From Promethearchaeota archaeon (GTDB taxonomy: Archaea; Asgardarchaeota; Lokiarchaeia; Sigyniarchaeales; SOKP01), in NCBI GenBank assembly GCA_048940925.1, contig JBHLOC010000016.1, positions 16,989-80,988 on the forward strand: a DNA stretch of 64,000 nucleotides. The letters are read 5' to 3'. The notes under the pieces are model-generated. The model saw only the letters and a list, made by a program, of their open reading frames with translations. It did no database searches and was not told the DNA's origin. Shown piece after piece: positions 1-47,281 of this stretch. The translations under genes were made by a program, and so were the position numbers. Numbering within the stretch: the first letter of the stretch is position 1; every line of letters starts with the position of its first letter.

Positions 1-1794
1 GAAGAAAACAAAGATAGAAACACGATTATAAACGAAAGAAAAAAAGAAATTGAAAGTTTAGATATTGAAATTGAAAAGTTAATAGAGCTTAAAGATAAAT
101 ATTGGGATAATATATCTCAAATCCAAGATGATATCGAGAAAAAACAAACAGAATTAGAGACTTTAAGAATAAAGTTACAAGAATTACATGGAATTCAGAA
201 CTTATTCGAAAATATTACTGAAATTGATGAAAATATACAAAAATTAAATAGTGCAATAGATGATAAAAAGAATTTGATTATTAATACTGAAAATAGTATT
301 AATAAAATTCAAGAAGAGCAAAATTCTATTCAAAATGAAATTGATACTTATACTATACAAAAAGAAAAATTTTGGGAGATAACAGAAAAAATCCAGAAGC
401 AAATTGAAGATAAAAATAAGGAATTAGAAGAAACTATGGATCGTCTTAGGGCACTGGAAAATGTAATGAGAATTATCAATTCAATTGAGGATATTAAAAA
501 GGAAAATATTGATGCCAATAATAGTATTGAACAGTGTTTGAAAGATGTTGAAGTTTTCAACTCTCAAGTTGATGAAATTCAAAAAAATGTTGATCAAAGA
601 CAAGAAATAATAGATTCTCTTAGAAATGAAAAAAGTAAAGAATTGGAATTACAAAAAAAAGCCCAAAAGCAATTGAACAAGCTGAATAAAGATTTACAGA
701 AACACCAAGGAAAATTAAATGAATTAAATAAAAATAAAGAAAGAGAACAGAAAATTATAGAATTAGGTGTAGAGATACAAGACACTGAAAAACAAGTAGA
801 ATCCACTTTAAACGAATTAGAGAATTTTAAAGAAGAATTAAATAATGAAAATGAGAAAAAGGACAATAAGCAAAATGAAATTGATAATTATGTCCAAGAA
901 AAAGATCAATCATGGAAAAAACAAAAACAATTCCAAAAAATAATTACAGATTTGAAATCAGATCTGTCGATGGAAAATTCAAAAAAAAATAACTTTGAAT
1001 CTAAGAAAATTATATGCGCAGATCAAATAGAGACTTTGTTTCAACGATCCAAGGAATTTGGCTCATTACCAAGGGTAACCGAAGATTTATCAGAACCAGG
1101 GTTACAATCTGAAATAGTGGAAGCAACAAAGAAGAAGAAAGCTCTCGAACCTGTGAATTTAAAGGCAATTGAACAGTACGATGCAGTTAAAGAAAGATTT
1201 GATGAAATTGACATGCGTAGACAGACAATACAGAGAGAAAGAAAATCGATTTTAGATGCAATAGATAAAATAGAACTTGAAAAAACAAGAACATTTATGA
1301 AAGCATATCATGAGATTAACCGAGAATTTAGTATGATTTTTCAAAAACTCAGCCCTGGTGGTTCGGCCAAAATGATTTTAGATCGTCCTGATAAACCTTT
1401 TGAGGGTGGAATTAGTATTGAAGCTAGACCTCGAGGTAAAAAAATATCTAGCCTTGAAATTCTAAGTGGAGGCGAAAAAACACTCGTAGCACTCTCGTTT
1501 ATCTTTGCTGTTCAGGAATTTTATCCAGCACCATTTTATGTTATGGATGAGATTGATGCAGCCCTTGATGGTCCTAATGTGCATAGAGTAAGCACAGTAA
1601 TTCAAGAATTTTCAAAACAAGCACAATTCCTTGTAATAAGTCATAGGGAAGAAAATATTGTGAATGCAGACCGCATATATGGAGTTTCAATGCAGCAAAG
1701 TGGAATTACTGATATTTTTAGCGTAGATTTAGAGGAGGAGGCTAAACGACTCTTAGAGCTTGAAGATATTGAGCCTACAATTACAGAAAATTAA
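1..1794 (+). CDS. smc: Chromosome segregation protein SMC, C-terminal part (truncated by the window edge)
   Basis: The frame is open from base 1 (EENKDRNTII...) into ORF 274..1794. Long coiled coil, then PVNLKAIEQY, ABC signature LSGGEKT, Walker B/D-loop VMDEIDAALD and H-loop ISHR. Followed by scpA and scpB. Confidence 0.97.
   Translation, partial: EENKDRNTIINERKKEIESLDIEIEKLIELKDKYWDNISQIQDDIEKKQTELETLRIKLQELHGIQNLFENITEIDENIQKLNSAIDDKKNLIINTENSINKIQEEQNSIQNEIDTYTIQKEKFWEITEKIQKQIEDKNKELEETMDRLRALENVMRIINSIEDIKKENIDANNSIEQCLKDVEVFNSQVDEIQKNVDQRQEIIDSLRNEKSKELELQKKAQKQLNKLNKDLQKHQGKLNELNKNKEREQKIIELGVEIQDTEKQVESTLNELENFKEELNNENEKKDNKQNEIDNYVQEKDQSWKKQKQFQKIITDLKSDLSMENSKKNNFESKKIICADQIETLFQRSKEFGSLPRVTEDLSEPGLQSEIVEATKKKKALEPVNLKAIEQYDAVKERFDEIDMRRQTIQRERKSILDAIDKIELEKTRTFMKAYHEINREFSMIFQKLSPGGSAKMILDRPDKPFEGGISIEARPRGKKISSLEILSGGEKTLVALSFIFAVQEFYPAPFYVMDEIDAALDGPNVHRVSTVIQEFSKQAQFLVISHREENIVNADRIYGVSMQQSGITDIFSVDLEEEAKRLLELEDIEPTITEN
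52..1005 (+). repeat. About 3.5 tandem 90-aa (270-nt) repeats within the SMC coiled-coil arm
   Basis: Units start at 52, 322, 592 and 862: ESLDIEIEKLIELKDKYWDNISQIQDDIEKKQTEL / NSIQNEIDTYTIQKEKFWEITEKIQKQIEDKNKEL / DQRQEIIDSLRNEKSKELELQKKAQKQLNKLNKDL / DNKQNEIDNYVQEKDQSWKKQKQFQKIITDLKSDL. An identical 16-mer caaaatgaaattgata occurs at 331 and 871, 540 nt apart. Confidence 0.8.
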
Positions 1795-1807: not shown

Positions 1808-1813
1808 GGTGAT
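1808..1813 (+). promoter_or_regulatory. Shine-Dalgarno motif GGTGAT upstream of the proposed ATA start of scpA
   Basis: GGTGA at 1808-1812, a 6-nt spacer, then ATA at 1819. The same geometry precedes the ATG starts at 25216 and 26400. Confidence 0.65.
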
Positions 1814-1818
1814 TAATA

Positions 1819-2817
1819 ATATCAGAAGACCAAAAGCCAGAAAAAAAGTATAATTTTAGCCAGTGGATAGTAAAAGATTTAAGAGAATTTGCCTCCAAGA
1901 ATAATATAAAAATTCCATCAAAATCTAAAAAGAAAGATATCATAGAATTGTTAGAAAAAATTGTATCACATCCAGAATTTGTTGATCGATCTGAAGAACC
2001 AGAAGAATTGGAGGAAGAGCTAATAGCAGATTTTGATGACGAGGATGATCTTGCTTTATTAAGGAAAGAAAAAATGGATCTAAAATTTTGGCAGCAACCC
2101 CCATTTTCCAGTTTATTGGATACAGAATTAGCTAAAGAATCAGATATAGCTTTTTATGATTTAGCTAGTCTAGTTGATGAATTTTTCGATAATATGCTTC
2201 ACGAAGATTTAATTAACTATAAGATCTCCGGAATTGCATTAAAGACTTCAGCATCATTACATCATTATAAAATTACTAGTATAATAAAAGAAGAAGAACA
2301 AATTCAAAAAAAAGAAGAATTAGAACGATATCGACAAAGACATAGCAGATCAATACCAAAAGCTCTACCCCAACCAATACAACCTAAAATGCAAATTGCT
2401 ACAAAGGAGGAATTGTTTGATGCTATGAGATCTGCTATAATAGAAGTAATGCAAAGTAAAGAAAAATTAAAAAGAAGGAGGATGCGAAAAGAAGAATTAA
2501 AACAACAAAGAATACAATTGAGATCAAAAGCTCAATTACCAAAAGAACTTTTAAAACACATTAGTGGAAAAGATCAGACAATTGAAGAGTTACATGAATC
2601 ATGGTATAACAGGATAAAAGCTACAATTAATTTAGATGATAAAGAAACGAGTTTTTTTGATTTGACAAAAATTATTAAAGATGAAGAAGAAACTAGCATA
2701 GGTAGGAAATTTATTTTAGTAAGGATGTTTTTAGCTTTAATGTTTTTATCCACAGGAGGTAAATTGAATTTATCTCAAGATGAAGATTTTAAGAATATAT
2801 CTATAGATTTAAAATAA
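1819..2817 (+). CDS. scpA: Segregation and condensation protein A (kleisin ScpA) with N-terminal HeH/Rho-N/SAP-like module; ORF track start 1948, proposed true start ATA 1819
   Basis: Kleisin N-domain (PPFSSLL...YDLASLVDEF...SGIALKTSASLHHYK) and C-terminal winged helix (FLALMFLSTGGKLNLSQDEDFKNISI). Lies between smc and scpB. The frame is open upstream to the TGA at 1810. Confidence 0.88.
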   Translation: MSEDQKPEKKYNFSQWIVKDLREFASKNNIKIPSKSKKKDIIELLEKIVSHPEFVDRSEEPEELEEELIADFDDEDDLALLRKEKMDLKFWQQPPFSSLLDTELAKESDIAFYDLASLVDEFFDNMLHEDLINYKISGIALKTSASLHHYKITSIIKEEEQIQKKEELERYRQRHSRSIPKALPQPIQPKMQIATKEELFDAMRSAIIEVMQSKEKLKRRRMRKEELKQQRIQLRSKAQLPKELLKHISGKDQTIEELHESWYNRIKATINLDDKETSFFDLTKIIKDEEETSIGRKFILVRMFLALMFLSTGGKLNLSQDEDFKNISIDLK

Positions 2818-21825: not shown

Positions 21826-24800
21826 GTGTCTAAAATTTCATCTAAAGAAGAAGGCAAGATAAAACAAGGTACCATCGCAGAATATATGCGAAAAAGAACA
21901 CAGCTTGTAGGTTTTGAGTTTGGATATTGGAAACATGTTCAATATTGTGCAGAATTTATAGATAACGCGCTTGATGCTATTGAAAGTTTTCAATGGAAGG
22001 AATTAAAAAGAACTGATTCAAAAGTAAAATTCTCCTTAGATCAAGAATTATTTTTAGAGAAATTCTCTATAGTAGAAGAAGCAAAAGAAGAAAAAAAATC
22101 TCAACACCTAGATGAGGAAGCAAAACATACCTTAATGCAAGAATTTGGTATTGAAACTACTGAAGTGCAACGGTCTACAGTCCAAGAATTAGAAGTAGAA
22201 GAAGAAGAATCTGGAGAAATTACAGATAAAGAAGAATTGGAAGTAGAAGAGGAGGTAAAAAGAATTATTGACGATATGCAGGAACTTATTAAACCTGTTG
22301 AATATATTATTGATGTTGAACCAATTTGTATAGTTCGTATAAGAGAATTTGAAGCGCCCTCGTTTTTAACATCTGAAATAAGTCAAAAAAATGTTATGAG
22401 TTTTACTTTCGAAATTTTTGATAATGGAACTGGAATGTCAAAGATAGATTTAAGAAAATTTGGAAGATACTTAGCTTCATCAAAATCTATAGAACTTAAA
22501 CAAACACGCGGAAGTCAAGGATTTGGTGCTCCTAGTGCATTTAGTGACGCTCAAAACACTACTGGCAGGCCTATTATCACTGTTTCAAAGACTGTTGATA
22601 ATGTTTATGCAACAGTAACCGAATTTTTCACAACTTCCAAAAATGAGAAAAAGTATTTAATTCACCCCTCAGAGATAGACAGTCCATTTCTTCATGGAAC
22701 ATACATCAAGTTAAATTATCTTAATGTAAAATACGTCAGGGGTTATGTTGAAAAATATATTGAAGAAACCGCATTTATGAACCCTCATATAACTATTATT
22801 TATATTGATCCGGAAGGAAAGGAAAAGATTTATCGAAGATTAGCTTCTTCTTTTCCCAAAGAACCCAAATACGCCAAACCACATCCTTCGTCTGTTAACA
22901 TTGGAGATTTGCAGGATTTAATAACGAAGTCAGATAACAAAAATATTACCGCTTTCTTAAAAGAAAATTTTGTTAGAATTAGTTCTAGAACAGCCAAAGA
23001 AATTGTAGAATTAGCAGAAAAATTTCTTCAAGATAAATTAAACCTCTTGATTCTTGAAAAGGGTTTTGTAACTAAAGTTCAAAAAAAAATTGATAAAATA
23101 TATTTCCTAAAATTTGAAAAACGAGTATTTGGACGATCAAATAAACCAAGAGATAAATTAATTATATATGAAATTGAATCTTTAGATTTGAAAGAAGATT
23201 TTTGGAAATTTATGGATGAATATAATAAAATTGATAAGAAACAGGAAAAGATTAATAAAGAGATAAGAAAACATAATAATCGAATTGAAAAATCTGAAAC
23301 CCAAAGAGAAATCAAAAACATTGAAAAAGAAGTAAAAAAGTTAATGAAAAATATAGATAATATTAAAAAAGAAAAAGAAAAATTAAAACTTCAAGTGAGT
23401 AATCTTTTTGAAACTAAAAAAGATGGTTTAATTGAATTAAAAAAAATTAAAAATCGAAGTGATTTCGAAGATTTAGTTAATGAAGTTCAAATTTCTAAAG
23501 TCAAACCAATTGATTTAACCAAAGAACAATTTAATTCTCTTTTTCTTGCTTTTAAATCTATAAAATACCTAGCACCACCTACAGACACAGCTATTCCTGT
23601 AGGTGATTCTATCTTAGAGAACACACTAATTAAGGAAATTGGACTAAAAATCTCAGAAAATCTGGATGATTTTGATTTACCACTAGATAACATAAAACAA
23701 ACAACTGAAATCTTATTAAAAGAAAAACACAAACTATTAAAAAATGAAGATCCTAAGATAAGGGAGAACATGATAAATAATATATCTATTGATTCTGATG
23801 AAATCATTAATATAAGCTCTGAAATATTAGGAAGTATCGAAATTGTAGAGGGAAAAGAAGATGATGAACAATACACACAATATATTGATGATATTCTTAC
23901 TTTTTCTGAATTAGAACCTATTGAAAGTTATACGAATTTATTTGAATATTTTATTGAGAATTATACTAGAGATGATGATTTTGTCGCTGCTGAAACAAGA
24001 GCTCCGACAAGTGGAAAAGGTTTAGCTTATGTTGTTGAAGCTGTATTGGCTTATTCTAGAAATATTGAAATACCAAAACGTTCTAGAGATGTTTTATCAA
24101 GATTTGTAAACAGAACTCCTAAACTTAGAGATAGCGCAGATTGTGCTATAACTAAAGCAGTTCAATCAGTAAATTGGAAAAATTATAATTTAGATACATA
24201 TGATAATGGACTCCCAAAGGGACCAATTAAATTATTGGTTAATGTTTCTGGTCCTTTTGTTCATTTAATGTTTAAATCTCAATCAAAAAACGCTTTAGCT
24301 GATGACGAAGATTTAATTAAAGAAATTAAATATTGTCTTGAAGCAATTGGGAGAAGATTACGTGTCTATCTTAATAGAAAAGCGAGTCTTCGTAAAACTG
24401 AGAAAAGAGCTAGTTTAATTGACAAATATATACCTATTTTCGTTGAAAGCATTTATAATATTGCAACACAGGGTAATAGCATATATAAAGCGAAGATTAA
24501 TGTAAAAGAATTAGAAGATTTAATGAGAGGGGCAATTGGTAAAAAACCTGCACCTAAAGCTTTAAAAGAGCCAGAATTACCTTCTAAAACCGAAACCATA
24601 GAGAAAGAACTAAAAAAAGAAGAAATCAAGCCAGAAGAACCTAAAGAAACTGAAGTAATTAGTGCAGTAAAACCAATAAAAGAAAAAATACATATTGAAA
24701 AACCCCAAATTTCCAAGAAAACTCTGTTGAATTGGAATGTAAAAGAACTTAGAGATTATTGTAATGAAAGCAATATTTATGTTCCATCTAAAGCTAGAAA

Positions 24801-25200
24801 GGCTGAAATCATAGAAAAAATATTAAAATCATTTGCTGAAGAAAGAGTAATAGAAAAACCAGAAATAATACCTGTAGAAAAACAAATAGTCTCCAAGAAG
24901 ATTGCTGTAATGAAACCCTCAAAAAAACCTGCAATTGCTCAAGAAATAATAAAGCCAAAACCTAAACCAAAACTAGCCAAAACACAACCAACTCAAACAA
25001 CATTACCAGTCATAACAACTGATAAAATACTAGAAGCATTATCAGATGAGTGGCAAACCATTAAACATCTTATATTTAAATTAAAAATTAAGGATATGAT
25101 GGATGCTAGATATCTTCAACTCAAACTCAAAGAATTAGAACGTAAAGGAGAAGTTTTAGTAGAAATTAAGATGGGTAGAAAGCATTGGAAATTAAAATAG
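21826..25200 (+). CDS. top6B: DNA topoisomerase VI subunit B, greatly expanded (1124 aa)
   Basis: GHKL motifs EFIDNALDA, DNGTGM, QTRGSQGFG and HGT; KPHP; transducer RFVNRTP and FKSQSK. Carries several insertions and a C-terminal tail. Adjacent to subunit A. Confidence 0.93.
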   Translation: MSKISSKEEGKIKQGTIAEYMRKRTQLVGFEFGYWKHVQYCAEFIDNALDAIESFQWKELKRTDSKVKFSLDQELFLEKFSIVEEAKEEKKSQHLDEEAKHTLMQEFGIETTEVQRSTVQELEVEEEESGEITDKEELEVEEEVKRIIDDMQELIKPVEYIIDVEPICIVRIREFEAPSFLTSEISQKNVMSFTFEIFDNGTGMSKIDLRKFGRYLASSKSIELKQTRGSQGFGAPSAFSDAQNTTGRPIITVSKTVDNVYATVTEFFTTSKNEKKYLIHPSEIDSPFLHGTYIKLNYLNVKYVRGYVEKYIEETAFMNPHITIIYIDPEGKEKIYRRLASSFPKEPKYAKPHPSSVNIGDLQDLITKSDNKNITAFLKENFVRISSRTAKEIVELAEKFLQDKLNLLILEKGFVTKVQKKIDKIYFLKFEKRVFGRSNKPRDKLIIYEIESLDLKEDFWKFMDEYNKIDKKQEKINKEIRKHNNRIEKSETQREIKNIEKEVKKLMKNIDNIKKEKEKLKLQVSNLFETKKDGLIELKKIKNRSDFEDLVNEVQISKVKPIDLTKEQFNSLFLAFKSIKYLAPPTDTAIPVGDSILENTLIKEIGLKISENLDDFDLPLDNIKQTTEILLKEKHKLLKNEDPKIRENMINNISIDSDEIINISSEILGSIEIVEGKEDDEQYTQYIDDILTFSELEPIESYTNLFEYFIENYTRDDDFVAAETRAPTSGKGLAYVVEAVLAYSRNIEIPKRSRDVLSRFVNRTPKLRDSADCAITKAVQSVNWKNYNLDTYDNGLPKGPIKLLVNVSGPFVHLMFKSQSKNALADDEDLIKEIKYCLEAIGRRLRVYLNRKASLRKTEKRASLIDKYIPIFVESIYNIATQGNSIYKAKINVKELEDLMRGAIGKKPAPKALKEPELPSKTETIEKELKKEEIKPEEPKETEVISAVKPIKEKIHIEKPQISKKTLLNWNVKELRDYCNESNIYVPSKARKAEIIEKILKSFAEERVIEKPEIIPVEKQIVSKKIAVMKPSKKPAIAQEIIKPKPKPKLAKTQPTQTTLPVITTDKILEALSDEWQTIKHLIFKLKIKDMMDARYLQLKLKELERKGEVLVEIKMGRKHWKLK

Positions 25201-25215: not shown

Positions 25216-26403
25216 ATGAGTGAAAAAGCAAAAAGTAAAGAATGGGATTTAAAGGCTGCTAAAAGTTTGTTTAATGAATATTTAGAGAAAGGAAGTGAAG
25301 ATAAACCTATTGAACTCCCTCCTGATACCGTTAAAATAGATGATCTTAAAAGAAAAGAAGCTCTTGAAAGATTATATTTATTGATTGATGATGTGTTAAA
25401 AAAAATATATGATACAGGTCGTCCATCTATACAACTTCCTTCAAGAACAAGTTCAAATATTATTTGGGATGAAGAAAATGATTTATTACTTCTTGGTAAG
25501 CAAATAATGGAAAAACAGTTTCACTCACTTACAAGTGTGGCAGACATTACACGGTTAATAAAAGTGTTAGAAAAGGTTAATGAGTTATTGATAAAAGATT
25601 TACATGCTACCAAAAGAGAAATTTTTTATTCTGATGTTAAATTATTCCAAGATCAAAAAAACAGTGATAAGAGCATTGAAGATGTTGCTACTATGCTTTA
25701 TACTACTAGAAACGCTACTCACATTGTAGCTTCAGCCAAGGGTTCCTGTATTGGCAGACTTAGAATTAGAGATAAAAATGATATTATCGATTTAGAAGGA
25801 TTGGGCAGTGGAGGGTGGACAATAAGCCCAATGCTCGATAATATTGAAATAATTGAATCAGATGCGGAGTTCATAATTGTTGTAGAGAAAGATGCAGCTA
25901 TGATAAGGTTATCAGAAGCTCGCTTTTGGCGAAAATATCCATGTATTATATTGACGGCAAAGGGTGCCGCTGATATTGCAACCAGAATGTTTTTAAGAAA
26001 ATTAAGTAAAGATTTAAATCTCCCAGTTTTTAGTTTAGTTGATAGTGATCCATATGGTCATTATATTCATTCAGTTTATCTAAGAGGATCAAAACGATTA
26101 AGTTATGAATCTCCATTTCTAGCTACGCCAGATATTAAATTATTAGGAGTTTTAACCAGAGATTTAGATAAATATAATGTACCAAATGATTGTAGACTTT
26201 CAATGAACAAAATGGATATTAAAAGGACAAAAGAACTTCTTAAGGAAGATTTTGTCATAAAAAATAAACAGTGGGAACAAGATCTTAAATTAGCACTTAA
26301 TTTAAAGATTAAAGCAGAAATTCAAGCGTTATCGTCACATGGATTTGAATTCTTAACTGATGAATATTTACCAGAAAAATTAACCACGGGTGATTGGATA
26401 TGA
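25216..26403 (+). CDS. top6A: DNA topoisomerase VI subunit A (Spo11 family)
   Basis: TKREIFY with the catalytic Tyr, Toprim VVEKDA, DSDPYG and KAEIQAL. Confidence 0.96.
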   Translation: MSEKAKSKEWDLKAAKSLFNEYLEKGSEDKPIELPPDTVKIDDLKRKEALERLYLLIDDVLKKIYDTGRPSIQLPSRTSSNIIWDEENDLLLLGKQIMEKQFHSLTSVADITRLIKVLEKVNELLIKDLHATKREIFYSDVKLFQDQKNSDKSIEDVATMLYTTRNATHIVASAKGSCIGRLRIRDKNDIIDLEGLGSGGWTISPMLDNIEIIESDAEFIIVVEKDAAMIRLSEARFWRKYPCIILTAKGAADIATRMFLRKLSKDLNLPVFSLVDSDPYGHYIHSVYLRGSKRLSYESPFLATPDIKLLGVLTRDLDKYNVPNDCRLSMNKMDIKRTKELLKEDFVIKNKQWEQDLKLALNLKIKAEIQALSSHGFEFLTDEYLPEKLTTGDWI

Positions 26404-45952: not shown

Positions 45953-47281
45953 ATTTTAGGTGGAAAAGGTAGAAGTTTAATTTTATTCGCAGTTTTTTTT
46001 CTTACAGCTGGATTTGCTTTTGAAAATTACTTTCTAGTATACTTTGCTGTATTATTACTTTTTAGTACTATTATCAGCTTACCGGTTTTCCACTATAAAA
46101 TGAACGTTGAAGAATTATTAGTCCATCGAGAATTAGAAAAAGAGAAAGTATTTAAAGATGATTTTGTCCATGTAAAAGTAATCATTGAAAATATTGGGAA
46201 TGCCAGTTTTGATTTTCTTGAAATCAGAGATAGTTTTAACCCCCAGCTGTTTAGATTAATTTTAGGTGAAAATTTTATTTCAACTCGAATCGGTCCCAAA
46301 GAAATAGTTAAATTTTCATATGTTCTTGAACCAAGAGTTAGGGGAGAATATGCGCTTGGACCATTGTCTGTAATAGTTAAAGATAGATTAGGTTTTAATT
46401 CATTAGAACGAATAGTTCCTGATAGTGTAACTGATATATTAATATATCCCCCATATGAAGATATTAAAAGAATTGAAATATTAGGTTCCAAAAGATCTTT
46501 ACAATTAAACTATGGTTTACAGAGATCAAAGCAAAAGGGTCTTGGATCAGAATTTTATGGCATGAGAAAATATGTTTTTGGGGACCAATTTAGATTAATA
46601 GATTGGAAAGCAAGTGCTCGAGCTCAAACCTTAATAGTAAAAGAATTTGAGAGTGAAAGAGATGTAACTGTTATGATTTTAGTAGATTCTTCAGAAACTA
46701 TGGCGGGAGGGGCAATTGAAAATACTAAATTTGAATATGCAATTAGATCATGCATGCTTTTAACTAAAGTAGCTTTAACACGAAGAGATAACGTTGGAGT
46801 GTTTACGTTTTCTGATAAGAAGAATTTCAATTTCTTAAAACCAAATAGTGGCGAGGAACATTTTTATCAAGTGTTAGATTTTGTTGCTCGAGTAAAACCA
46901 GAAGGAAAATGTAGAATTGTAGAAGCCCTTGATTATTTCACACGAAGATTTCAGAAACGAAGTTTAGTTTTCATTATATCTGATTTAGAAGCAAATCCCA
47001 AAGAAATCAGTCAAGCAGTAAAAAAGCTTATACCCTTCAATCATTCTGTAATAATAATCAATCCCTTTAGTCCTTGGTTTGAAATTCATGAGATTGATCT
47101 ATCATCAACAGATAAAGCGTTAGCAGAAGCGATAAGCGAGGCAATGATGGAACATGTTTTAACAATTAAACAAGAACTTCGAAATCTAGGTATAAATATT
47201 ATAACGTGTGGACCCGATGATATGATGAATCAAGTCTTAGGTAATTACATGGAAGCGAAAAAGAAAGGGAGGGCGTTTTAA
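45953..47281 (+). CDS. DUF58 / vWA-like membrane protein (ORF track start 46100, proposed true start ATT 45953)
   Basis: RGEYALGP, GSEFYGMRKYVFGDQFRLIDWKASAR, VKEFESE, DSSETM and ISDL. The upstream in-frame extension LGGKGRSLILFAVFFLTAGFAFENYFLVYFAVLLLFSTIISLP supplies the expected two TMs. Confidence 0.88.
   Translation: MLGGKGRSLILFAVFFLTAGFAFENYFLVYFAVLLLFSTIISLPVFHYKMNVEELLVHRELEKEKVFKDDFVHVKVIIENIGNASFDFLEIRDSFNPQLFRLILGENFISTRIGPKEIVKFSYVLEPRVRGEYALGPLSVIVKDRLGFNSLERIVPDSVTDILIYPPYEDIKRIEILGSKRSLQLNYGLQRSKQKGLGSEFYGMRKYVFGDQFRLIDWKASARAQTLIVKEFESERDVTVMILVDSSETMAGGAIENTKFEYAIRSCMLLTKVALTRRDNVGVFTFSDKKNFNFLKPNSGEEHFYQVLDFVARVKPEGKCRIVEALDYFTRRFQKRSLVFIISDLEANPKEISQAVKKLIPFNHSVIIINPFSPWFEIHEIDLSSTDKALAEAISEAMMEHVLTIKQELRNLGINIITCGPDDMMNQVLGNYMEAKKKGRAF

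Follow-up and report, generated by a model that had tools for sequence, protein, structure and literature searches.

The locus between smc and scpB raises the question of where its kleisin gene begins, and what is encoded by the reading frame that continues upstream of the called start. A second question follows from a proposal made for the same DNA, that the upstream segment carries a small domain shared with the tail of topoisomerase VI subunit B (Top6B), and that this domain brings condensin and topoisomerase to a common target. The window (the whole stretch of 64,000 nucleotides that was analyzed, from genome G000) contains the following features:

1..1794, + strand: smc, 3' part, running off the window start (Pfam SMC_N, 5.2e-23; stop codon TAA at 1792-1794)
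1808..1812, + strand: Shine-Dalgarno (SD) sequence GGTGA of scpA, its TGA being the in-frame stop that opens the scpA frame
1819..1821, + strand: proposed ATA start codon of scpA, at the conserved ATH (ATA, ATT or ATC) position 6 nt after GGTGA
1819..2817, + strand: scpA (kleisin), full length as proposed, 332 codons plus stop (start given by the ORF finder, TTG 1948)
1864..1965, + strand: HeH module of ScpA (helix 1, 1870-1899; loop IKIPSKSKKK; helix 2, 1930-1965)
1966..2082, + strand: acidic low-complexity linker between HeH module and kleisin N-domain, read from the translation, ~40 residues
2844..3749, + strand: scpB (Pfam SMC_ScpB PF04079, 9.6e-34)
21826..25200, + strand: top6B, 1124 aa, with a long C-terminal tail (Pfam Topo-VIb_trans PF09239, 1.2e-28), adjoined by top6A
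24733..24843, + strand: HeH module in the Top6B tail (helix 1, 24739-24768; loop; helix 2, 24799-24843)
25006..25197, + strand: C-terminal domain of Top6B, ~64 aa, conserved in the Top6B tails of all four families examined
25216..26403, + strand: top6A (Pfam TOP6A-Spo11 Toprim, 7.6e-58; TP6A_N, 1e-16)

The scpA reading frame and its start codon

The gene identities that had been assumed for SMC, ScpB and Top6A are confirmed by clear Pfam matches, and Top6B has the transducer domain, together with a weak HATPase_c_3 match (22.1 bits against a cut-off of 25). The position of scpA between smc and scpB was read from the ORF list and Pfam. An NCBIfam search of ScpA gave no match; a profile built from its orthologues (A3) matches the ScpA N-domain (6ivh_A, E 1.3e-4) from profile position 85 onward and, at its C-terminus, gives a weak match to the ScpA/Scc1 C-terminal winged helix (E 0.04-0.09). 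The gene order smc-scpA-scpB and these orthologue-profile matches together identify the middle gene as the kleisin.

The scpA frame is open from 1813, immediately after the TGA at 1810-1812, and the peptide originally predicted for the extension is encoded exactly in this frame from ATA 1819. The range first given for it, 1819-1956, needs a small correction: it spans 46 codons, and the last K of the peptide lies at 1957-1959. The extension is kept in all the same-genus scpA loci examined in which the locus is intact, with open frames of 334-340 aa and ~80% identity. Across 190 pairwise comparisons of 38 module codons from 20 same-genus orthologues, pN is 0.126 and pS 0.649, with dN/dS ~0.1 wherever synonymous change has not reached saturation. 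Strong purifying selection acts on codons 1819-1947, and the expectation that the extension would be conserved in orthologous loci is thus borne out.

A Shine-Dalgarno sequence (GGTGA, or the variants GAGTGA, GGTGG and GGTAG) stands 6 nt before the ATH codon in 21/21 orthologous loci, separated from it by two A/T-rich, unconserved spacer codons. The start position itself is ATT, ATA or ATC in 19 of the 21, usually followed by a Ser codon. Three relatives have an ATG at or beside this position: in L008 at the very ATH position, in L004 one codon later and in L012 two codons earlier. Translation of ScpA most likely starts at ATA 1819, that is, from a near-cognate ATA/ATT/ATC codon that would be served by a perfect GGTGA ribosome-binding site 6 nt in front of it. 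This start would be the reason why gene finders miss the domain encoded behind it. Standard gene calls shorten the kleisin, and the public annotation of ScpA orthologues is inconsistent, with some proteins annotated from ATG and including the HeH domain and others truncated inside it, so that the extra domain is missing or unevenly represented.

The alternative, that the extension is not part of the protein (with translation from TTG 1948 and the upstream frame a relic) or is entered in another way (by a +1 frameshift in the A7 run after initiation at ATG 1806, or by read-through of the TGA from TTG 1801), is very improbable. It has on its side that 1813-1947 holds no ATG, GTG or TTG and, for the frameshift version, that ATG 1806 and the A7 run at 1841-1847 are present. 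However, the strong purifying selection on the extension speaks against a relic, there is no Shine-Dalgarno sequence in front of 1948, and the relatives with ATG at or beside the ATH position encode the same ScpA N-terminus. The frameshift and read-through versions were ruled out, as the ATG of ATGGTGA, the A-run and TTG 1801 are all unconserved in the orthologues, whereas the Shine-Dalgarno sequence, the 6-nt distance and the ATH codon are conserved.

Near-cognate starts of this kind look common in G000 rather than exceptional. The whole genome contains 100 sites at which a frame of at least 150 open codons follows GGTGA by 6 nt, and the codon at that position is ATA, ATT or ATC in 39 of them, ATG in 18 and GTG or TTG in 18; the ATH share exceeds its background of 12.9% with p = 5e-11. 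No ATH enrichment was found after GGTAA or AGTGA in the same genome. In several of the G000 genes with ATH at GGTGA+6, the segment ahead of any canonical start encodes a P-loop, Rossmann or receiver motif. Bacterial infC and pcnB (AUU, AUA or AUC after a Shine-Dalgarno sequence; NCBI table 11 initiators) likewise combine a near-cognate Ile codon with optimal Shine-Dalgarno spacing, but they differ in that near-cognate starts are common in G000 (39/100) and that the ATH codon of scpA is conserved across a genus. Another candidate ATH start lies within the window, an ATT at 45953 (C63:62941).

Fold and kinship of the modules on ScpA and Top6B

The extension is predicted, from models and sequence matches, to carry an HeH-type (SAP/Rho-N/HeH) domain of ~35 aa. 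The AF2 model of the ScpA module, based on 21 orthologues, has a pLDDT of 87.7 and two helices (H8-17 and H28-39) joined by a ten-residue extended loop; the model of the Top6B module, based on 20 modules, has a pLDDT of 85.4 and the same helix-loop-helix layout (H9-18 and H29-43). Pfam HeH and Ish1 match 21/21 ScpA modules (E <= 0.01) and Rho_N matches 20/21, while Rho_N, SAP or SAP_new25 match 13-14 of the 20 Top6B modules. For the two copies in the window, the Top6B module exceeds the Rho_N cut-off (28.4 bits against 24.9), and the ScpA module falls below the cut-offs of both Rho_N (24.4 against 24.9) and HeH (20.6 against 28.9).

Structural comparison points to the same fold class. The ScpA module aligns to SAP, Rho-N and LEM structures with VIA-align Z scores of 5-6.5, which are not individually significant at this size, and its nearest solved structures are almost all SAP (CDNF/MANF, Tho1, SLX4, E1B-AP5, Hcc-1), Rho-N (1a62/1a8v) or LEM (emerin/LAP2) domains, the emerin and LAP2 LEM domains being middling neighbors (Z 4.0-5.5). 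Foldseek, run on both modules, also returned SAP, Rho-N and LEM domains as top matches, with E-values that are not significant (E > 0.7, as expected for 45-residue models, so that only the identities of the top matches are informative); for the Top6B module the best was the Rho N-domain 1a8v (TM 0.80, 31% identity). A sequence search of the PDB with the ScpA and Top6B module profiles returned nothing meaningful. The AF2 layout, the Pfam matches to Rho_N, HeH, Ish1 and SAP and the structural neighbors agree with the SAP/LEM/Rho-N-type fold named in the original prediction: the domain is real and conserved, and HeH-type in its predicted fold.

Compared with the known SAP, HeH, LEM-like and Rho-N families (PF02037, PF12949, PF10281 and PF07498), the modules have the same ~35 residues, two helices and ~10-residue extended loop, the same hydrophobic pattern and basic start of helix 2, and the same placement at termini on flexible linkers. 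Unlike known members of the HeH clan, they form a tight, lineage-specific subfamily in which copies on different host proteins are closely alike, and they are borne by a kleisin, Top6B and gelsolin-domain proteins.

The resemblance first reported between the two modules was reproduced: the 28 residues from the W of the ScpA extension align without gaps to Top6B nt 24733-24816 with 14/28 identical. A phmmer comparison of the 56-aa extension with all six-frame ORFs of the 4.8-Mb genome, 56,611 in number, matched three and no more: scpA, Top6B (E 1.5e-6) and, ahead of the latter, a 309-aa ORF on contig C4 (E 1.9e-7). The orthologue-built profiles of the ScpA and Top6B modules match each other in hhalign with 98.5% probability and E 2.7e-15. 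By these sequence comparisons the two modules are homologous, their likeness lying beyond chance, and the claim of a shared module stands.

The two copies have nevertheless followed different courses. When 60 modules were placed in a maximum-likelihood tree, the Top6B copies separated as a clade of their own (100/93), whereas the ScpA copies group with gelsolin and other copies; the ScpA copy is thus nearer to the gelsolin than to the Top6B copies, and the phmmer ranking agrees. The net charge of the 30-aa core is +4.2 in ScpA (range +3 to +7), against +0.8 in most Top6B copies and +0.2 in a diverged Top6B subclade (Top6B range -1 to +3). The diverged Top6B copy (NWTKNELIEYC...SKDTKTVII) occurs in eight species (G003, G006, G007, G009, G011, G015, G017 and G023), has lost basic residues and retains 42-47% identity to that of G000, while the ScpA copies of the same eight species retain 71-78%. 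In G013 the HeH module is missing from the Top6B tail (C49:82678-83631). The Top6B tail of G022 (C112:2294-3632) contains in-frame TAA and TGA stops, marking either a broken gene or an assembly error.

Carriers of the module and fillers of the same slots

The module extends well beyond the two proteins in which it was first noticed. In the genome of the window, jackhmmer finds three close copies, on ScpA, Top6B and a gelsolin protein. A scan with the ScpA profile covered 151 genomes of the order, with 150 of its 362 matches listed; the module occurs in 123/131 genomes of the window's family, in 12 of its 13 genera, and in 1/19 genomes of three other families. At least five architectures carry it, namely ScpA, Top6B, two gelsolin-domain paralogues, a GIFT-domain protein and a large acidic protein. 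The scan of the genome and of Asgard relatives proposed as a check on the original prediction thus shows a family-wide module on several unrelated host proteins. Its presence on ScpA and on Top6B coincides by genus: both have it in 12/13 genera, and both lack it in the remaining genus of the family (g13) and in the other families.

The carriers differ widely in size and composition. ScpA carriers are ~335 aa long, with two tandem HeH copies in some relatives, and Top6B carriers are ~1100-1156 aa. Among the gelsolin-domain carriers there are two paralogues, one of ~310 aa and one of ~360-400 aa, and some of these proteins bear tandem copies at the C-terminus. Their family has at least 349 database members, all annotated as hypothetical, and the N-terminus of the carrier matches the Thor and Loki gelsolins (7c2h, 9.6e-7; 7c2f, 1.5e-6; also 7whg). 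The GIFT/GldG-like carrier has 446 aa, and the acidic carrier, of 750-780 aa, holds the module between poly-Glu runs.

Two of these carriers merit description in their own right. The gelsolin protein of G000 (C4:11527-12453) and its relatives (L036-L040) consist of an N-terminal gelsolin domain, a central domain whose fold is unknown and, at the C-terminus, either one HeH copy or two, and some species have two paralogues of the family per genome. The Thor protein '1DGelX' has an unexplained 'domain X' and localized to the nuclear-membrane/ER region in human cells (PMC7444086). In the acidic carrier (L076:374-2617 and L077:819-3170, from G131 and G122) an HeH of net charge -5 is followed by a large domain, with no other Pfam match.

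Where the module is absent from ScpA, the N-terminus is filled in other ways. In families f2-f4 there is no HeH; the protein begins with Lys/Ser/Thr-rich, basic, low-complexity tails followed by an acidic linker. In genus g13 of the window's own family, and in one f2 genus, it begins with a small zinc finger (CPYCG..F.RL..HKC) of the C2HC type, which gives weak matches to zf-C2H2/C2HC. Across the order (L021-L032, L080-L083) the ScpA N-termini thus comprise basic tails, a zinc finger, or one or two HeH copies, each followed by an acidic linker. On comparison of the sequences, this points to the ScpA N-terminus as a slot for small nucleic-acid-binding appendages, of which HeH would be one filler.

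In Top6B, the tails across the order share a low-complexity linker and the conserved C-terminal domain, and the HeH module is an insertion in the linker that was observed in no family but the window's; genus g13 and the remaining families are without it. Where HeH is absent, the linker is rich in Pro, Ser, Thr or Ala, and several of these linkers, among them those of G037, G039 and g13, also have Lys-rich stretches. The absence of HeH from both ScpA and Top6B in the other families of the order is in line with the earlier statement that the two proteins normally lack the module.

Possible roles of the module and further domains of its carriers

We consider the module on ScpA to be, with somewhat better than even probability, a generic, mobile HeH tether that is translated from the ATH start and acts as a non-specific DNA anchor, and its likeness to the Top6B copy to reflect domain shuffling. 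In this Loki-type Asgard family the first ~50 residues of ScpA would form a small, strongly basic HeH domain, joined by the ~40-residue acidic linker to the kleisin body. The module family would be young, lineage-specific and mobile, having been copied onto the flexible tails of several unrelated proteins. On ScpA the module lies at the end of a probably flexible linker, beside the N-domain through which the kleisin binds the SMC neck. There it would most likely serve as a non-specific DNA-binding anchor, comparable to the Lys-rich tails or the C2HC zinc finger that occupy the same ScpA slot in sister lineages. It would add a DNA contact near the SMC heads, and the acidic linker might mask it. 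We infer this role from the family to which the fold belongs, from the basic character of the loop and of the start of helix 2, and from what fills the slot in other lineages. In Top6B the copy occupies a tail linker that is of low complexity in the other lineages examined and, in several of them, Lys-rich. The two copies would then be alike because a generic nucleic-acid tether was shuffled between proteins, and not because the two machines are paired in a dedicated way. An extra DNA contact on or beside the kleisin near the SMC heads, and with it a possible anchor for loop extrusion, is also provided in eukaryotic SMC complexes by the Ycg1-Brn1 'safety belt' and by Scc3-Scc1; here, however, a tiny autonomous domain at the extreme N-terminus would take the place of a HEAT-repeat groove.

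Several observations count against this reading. The Top6B copies are near neutral and those of the acidic protein carry a charge of -5, so not all copies resemble DNA binders; with its poly-Glu flanks, the acidic-carrier copy is hard to square with DNA binding. A protein-contact SAP domain, that of MANF, is among the top structural matches, and the co-presence of the module on ScpA and Top6B by genus is also predicted by a functional link between the two.

Such a link was the substance of the original prediction, in which the shared module recruits kleisin and Topo VI alike to a common target, be it a DNA structure, a chromatin protein or a membrane anchor. On this reading, loop extrusion would take place together with decatenation. 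The module proved real, conserved, HeH-type by fold prediction and homologous on both proteins; the dedicated connection did not hold up, and we now regard it as unlikely. Beyond the homology and the matching distribution over genera, it is favored by the position of both modules on flexible linkers of chromosome enzymes and by the fact that two of the three close copies in the window's genome are on chromosome proteins. However, the module is neither exclusive to nor specifically shared by condensin and Topo VI: it is also found on gelsolin-domain, GIFT-domain and acidic proteins, and is thus in part scattered over unrelated, non-chromosomal hosts, with which the ScpA copy groups in preference to that of Top6B. 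The core charges of the two copies are unlike, and the co-occurrence may stem from a single evolutionary event, at a time when the module was spreading within that clade. The Top6B copy has diverged in eight species and been deleted in G013, whereas the ScpA copy has remained steady, and this unequal drift argues against a shared target because a specific target should constrain both copies alike. MukB-ParC (Topo IV) and condensin-Topo II similarly place a condensin and a type II topoisomerase on the same chromosome, but by direct contact or functional interplay, whereas the present case offers no more than an accessory domain in common, which further proteins carry as well. Co-targeting is only partly supported, and it survives only in a general form in which all carriers are addressed to the nucleoid.

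A comparably small chance attaches to the module being a protein-protein adaptor that plugs all of its carriers into one abundant hub, such as a nucleoid protein or actin. The HeH fold is known to mediate protein contacts as well, in LEM-BAF and in MANF SAP-BiP, and protein-binding SAP domains are among the best structural neighbors of the modules. The positions that are invariant across carriers (W-T-V-K-x-L ... S-x-x-[RK]-K-x-x-I-I) exceed what the hydrophobic core accounts for, and some copies are acidic, which would also suit an adaptor. No candidate partner was identified, however; a basic loop and helix-2 N-terminus, as in the ScpA copy, are typical of DNA-binding SAP domains, and the Lys-rich tails and zinc finger that alternatively fill the ScpA slot point to nucleic acid.

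In a broader version, to which we assign only a low probability, the module would be a lineage-specific nucleoid address tag by which condensin, Topo VI and actin-regulating proteins with gelsolin domains reach the chromosome. If so, chromosome folding and decatenation would be coupled to the actin cytoskeleton, and the module would be a prokaryotic precursor of the SAP/HeH/LEM domains that tether chromatin in eukaryotic nuclei. Domains of the HeH, SAP and LEM types are hallmark chromatin and nuclear-envelope tethers in eukaryotes.

Returning to the favored reading of a generic tether, a domain of this type at the start of a kleisin suggests a way in which SMC complexes of archaea could acquire an anchor on DNA. 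Among archaea, the closest relatives of eukaryotes here show an expanding HeH family, borne by condensin, by Topo VI and by proteins with gelsolin domains. Domains of the HeH, SAP and Rho-N types are well known in themselves. Our searches of the searchable literature found no description of HeH, SAP, Rho-N or LEM domains on Asgard ScpA, Top6B or gelsolin-domain proteins, or of N-terminal DNA-binding extensions on archaeal kleisins; the carrier proteins are already in public databases as hypothetical, with precomputed HeH or Ish1 matches. The domains are small and easily expressed, and provide concrete objects for tests of DNA-, chromatin- or actin-linked function.

Two further domains were encountered on the way. 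Beyond the close copies, a genome scan with Pfam Rho_N gave three weak matches and a distant Rho_N at the N-terminus of a protein with a SWIM motif. In this protein, a 310-aa frame (C77:66020-66949), the Rho_N match (36.6 bits in hmmscan, 39.5 bits in the genome scan) is followed by a SWIM-like CxC...CxH motif, and by its sequence this Rho_N is a more distant member of the same fold class as the ScpA and Top6B modules. For the C-terminal domain of Top6B, no Pfam family was found; its sequence pattern can be read as winged-helix-like, and it also matches stand-alone ORFs of 81-94 aa in relatives (G003:C7:93176-93397, G018:C1:3163-3354 and G011:C166:36641-36856).
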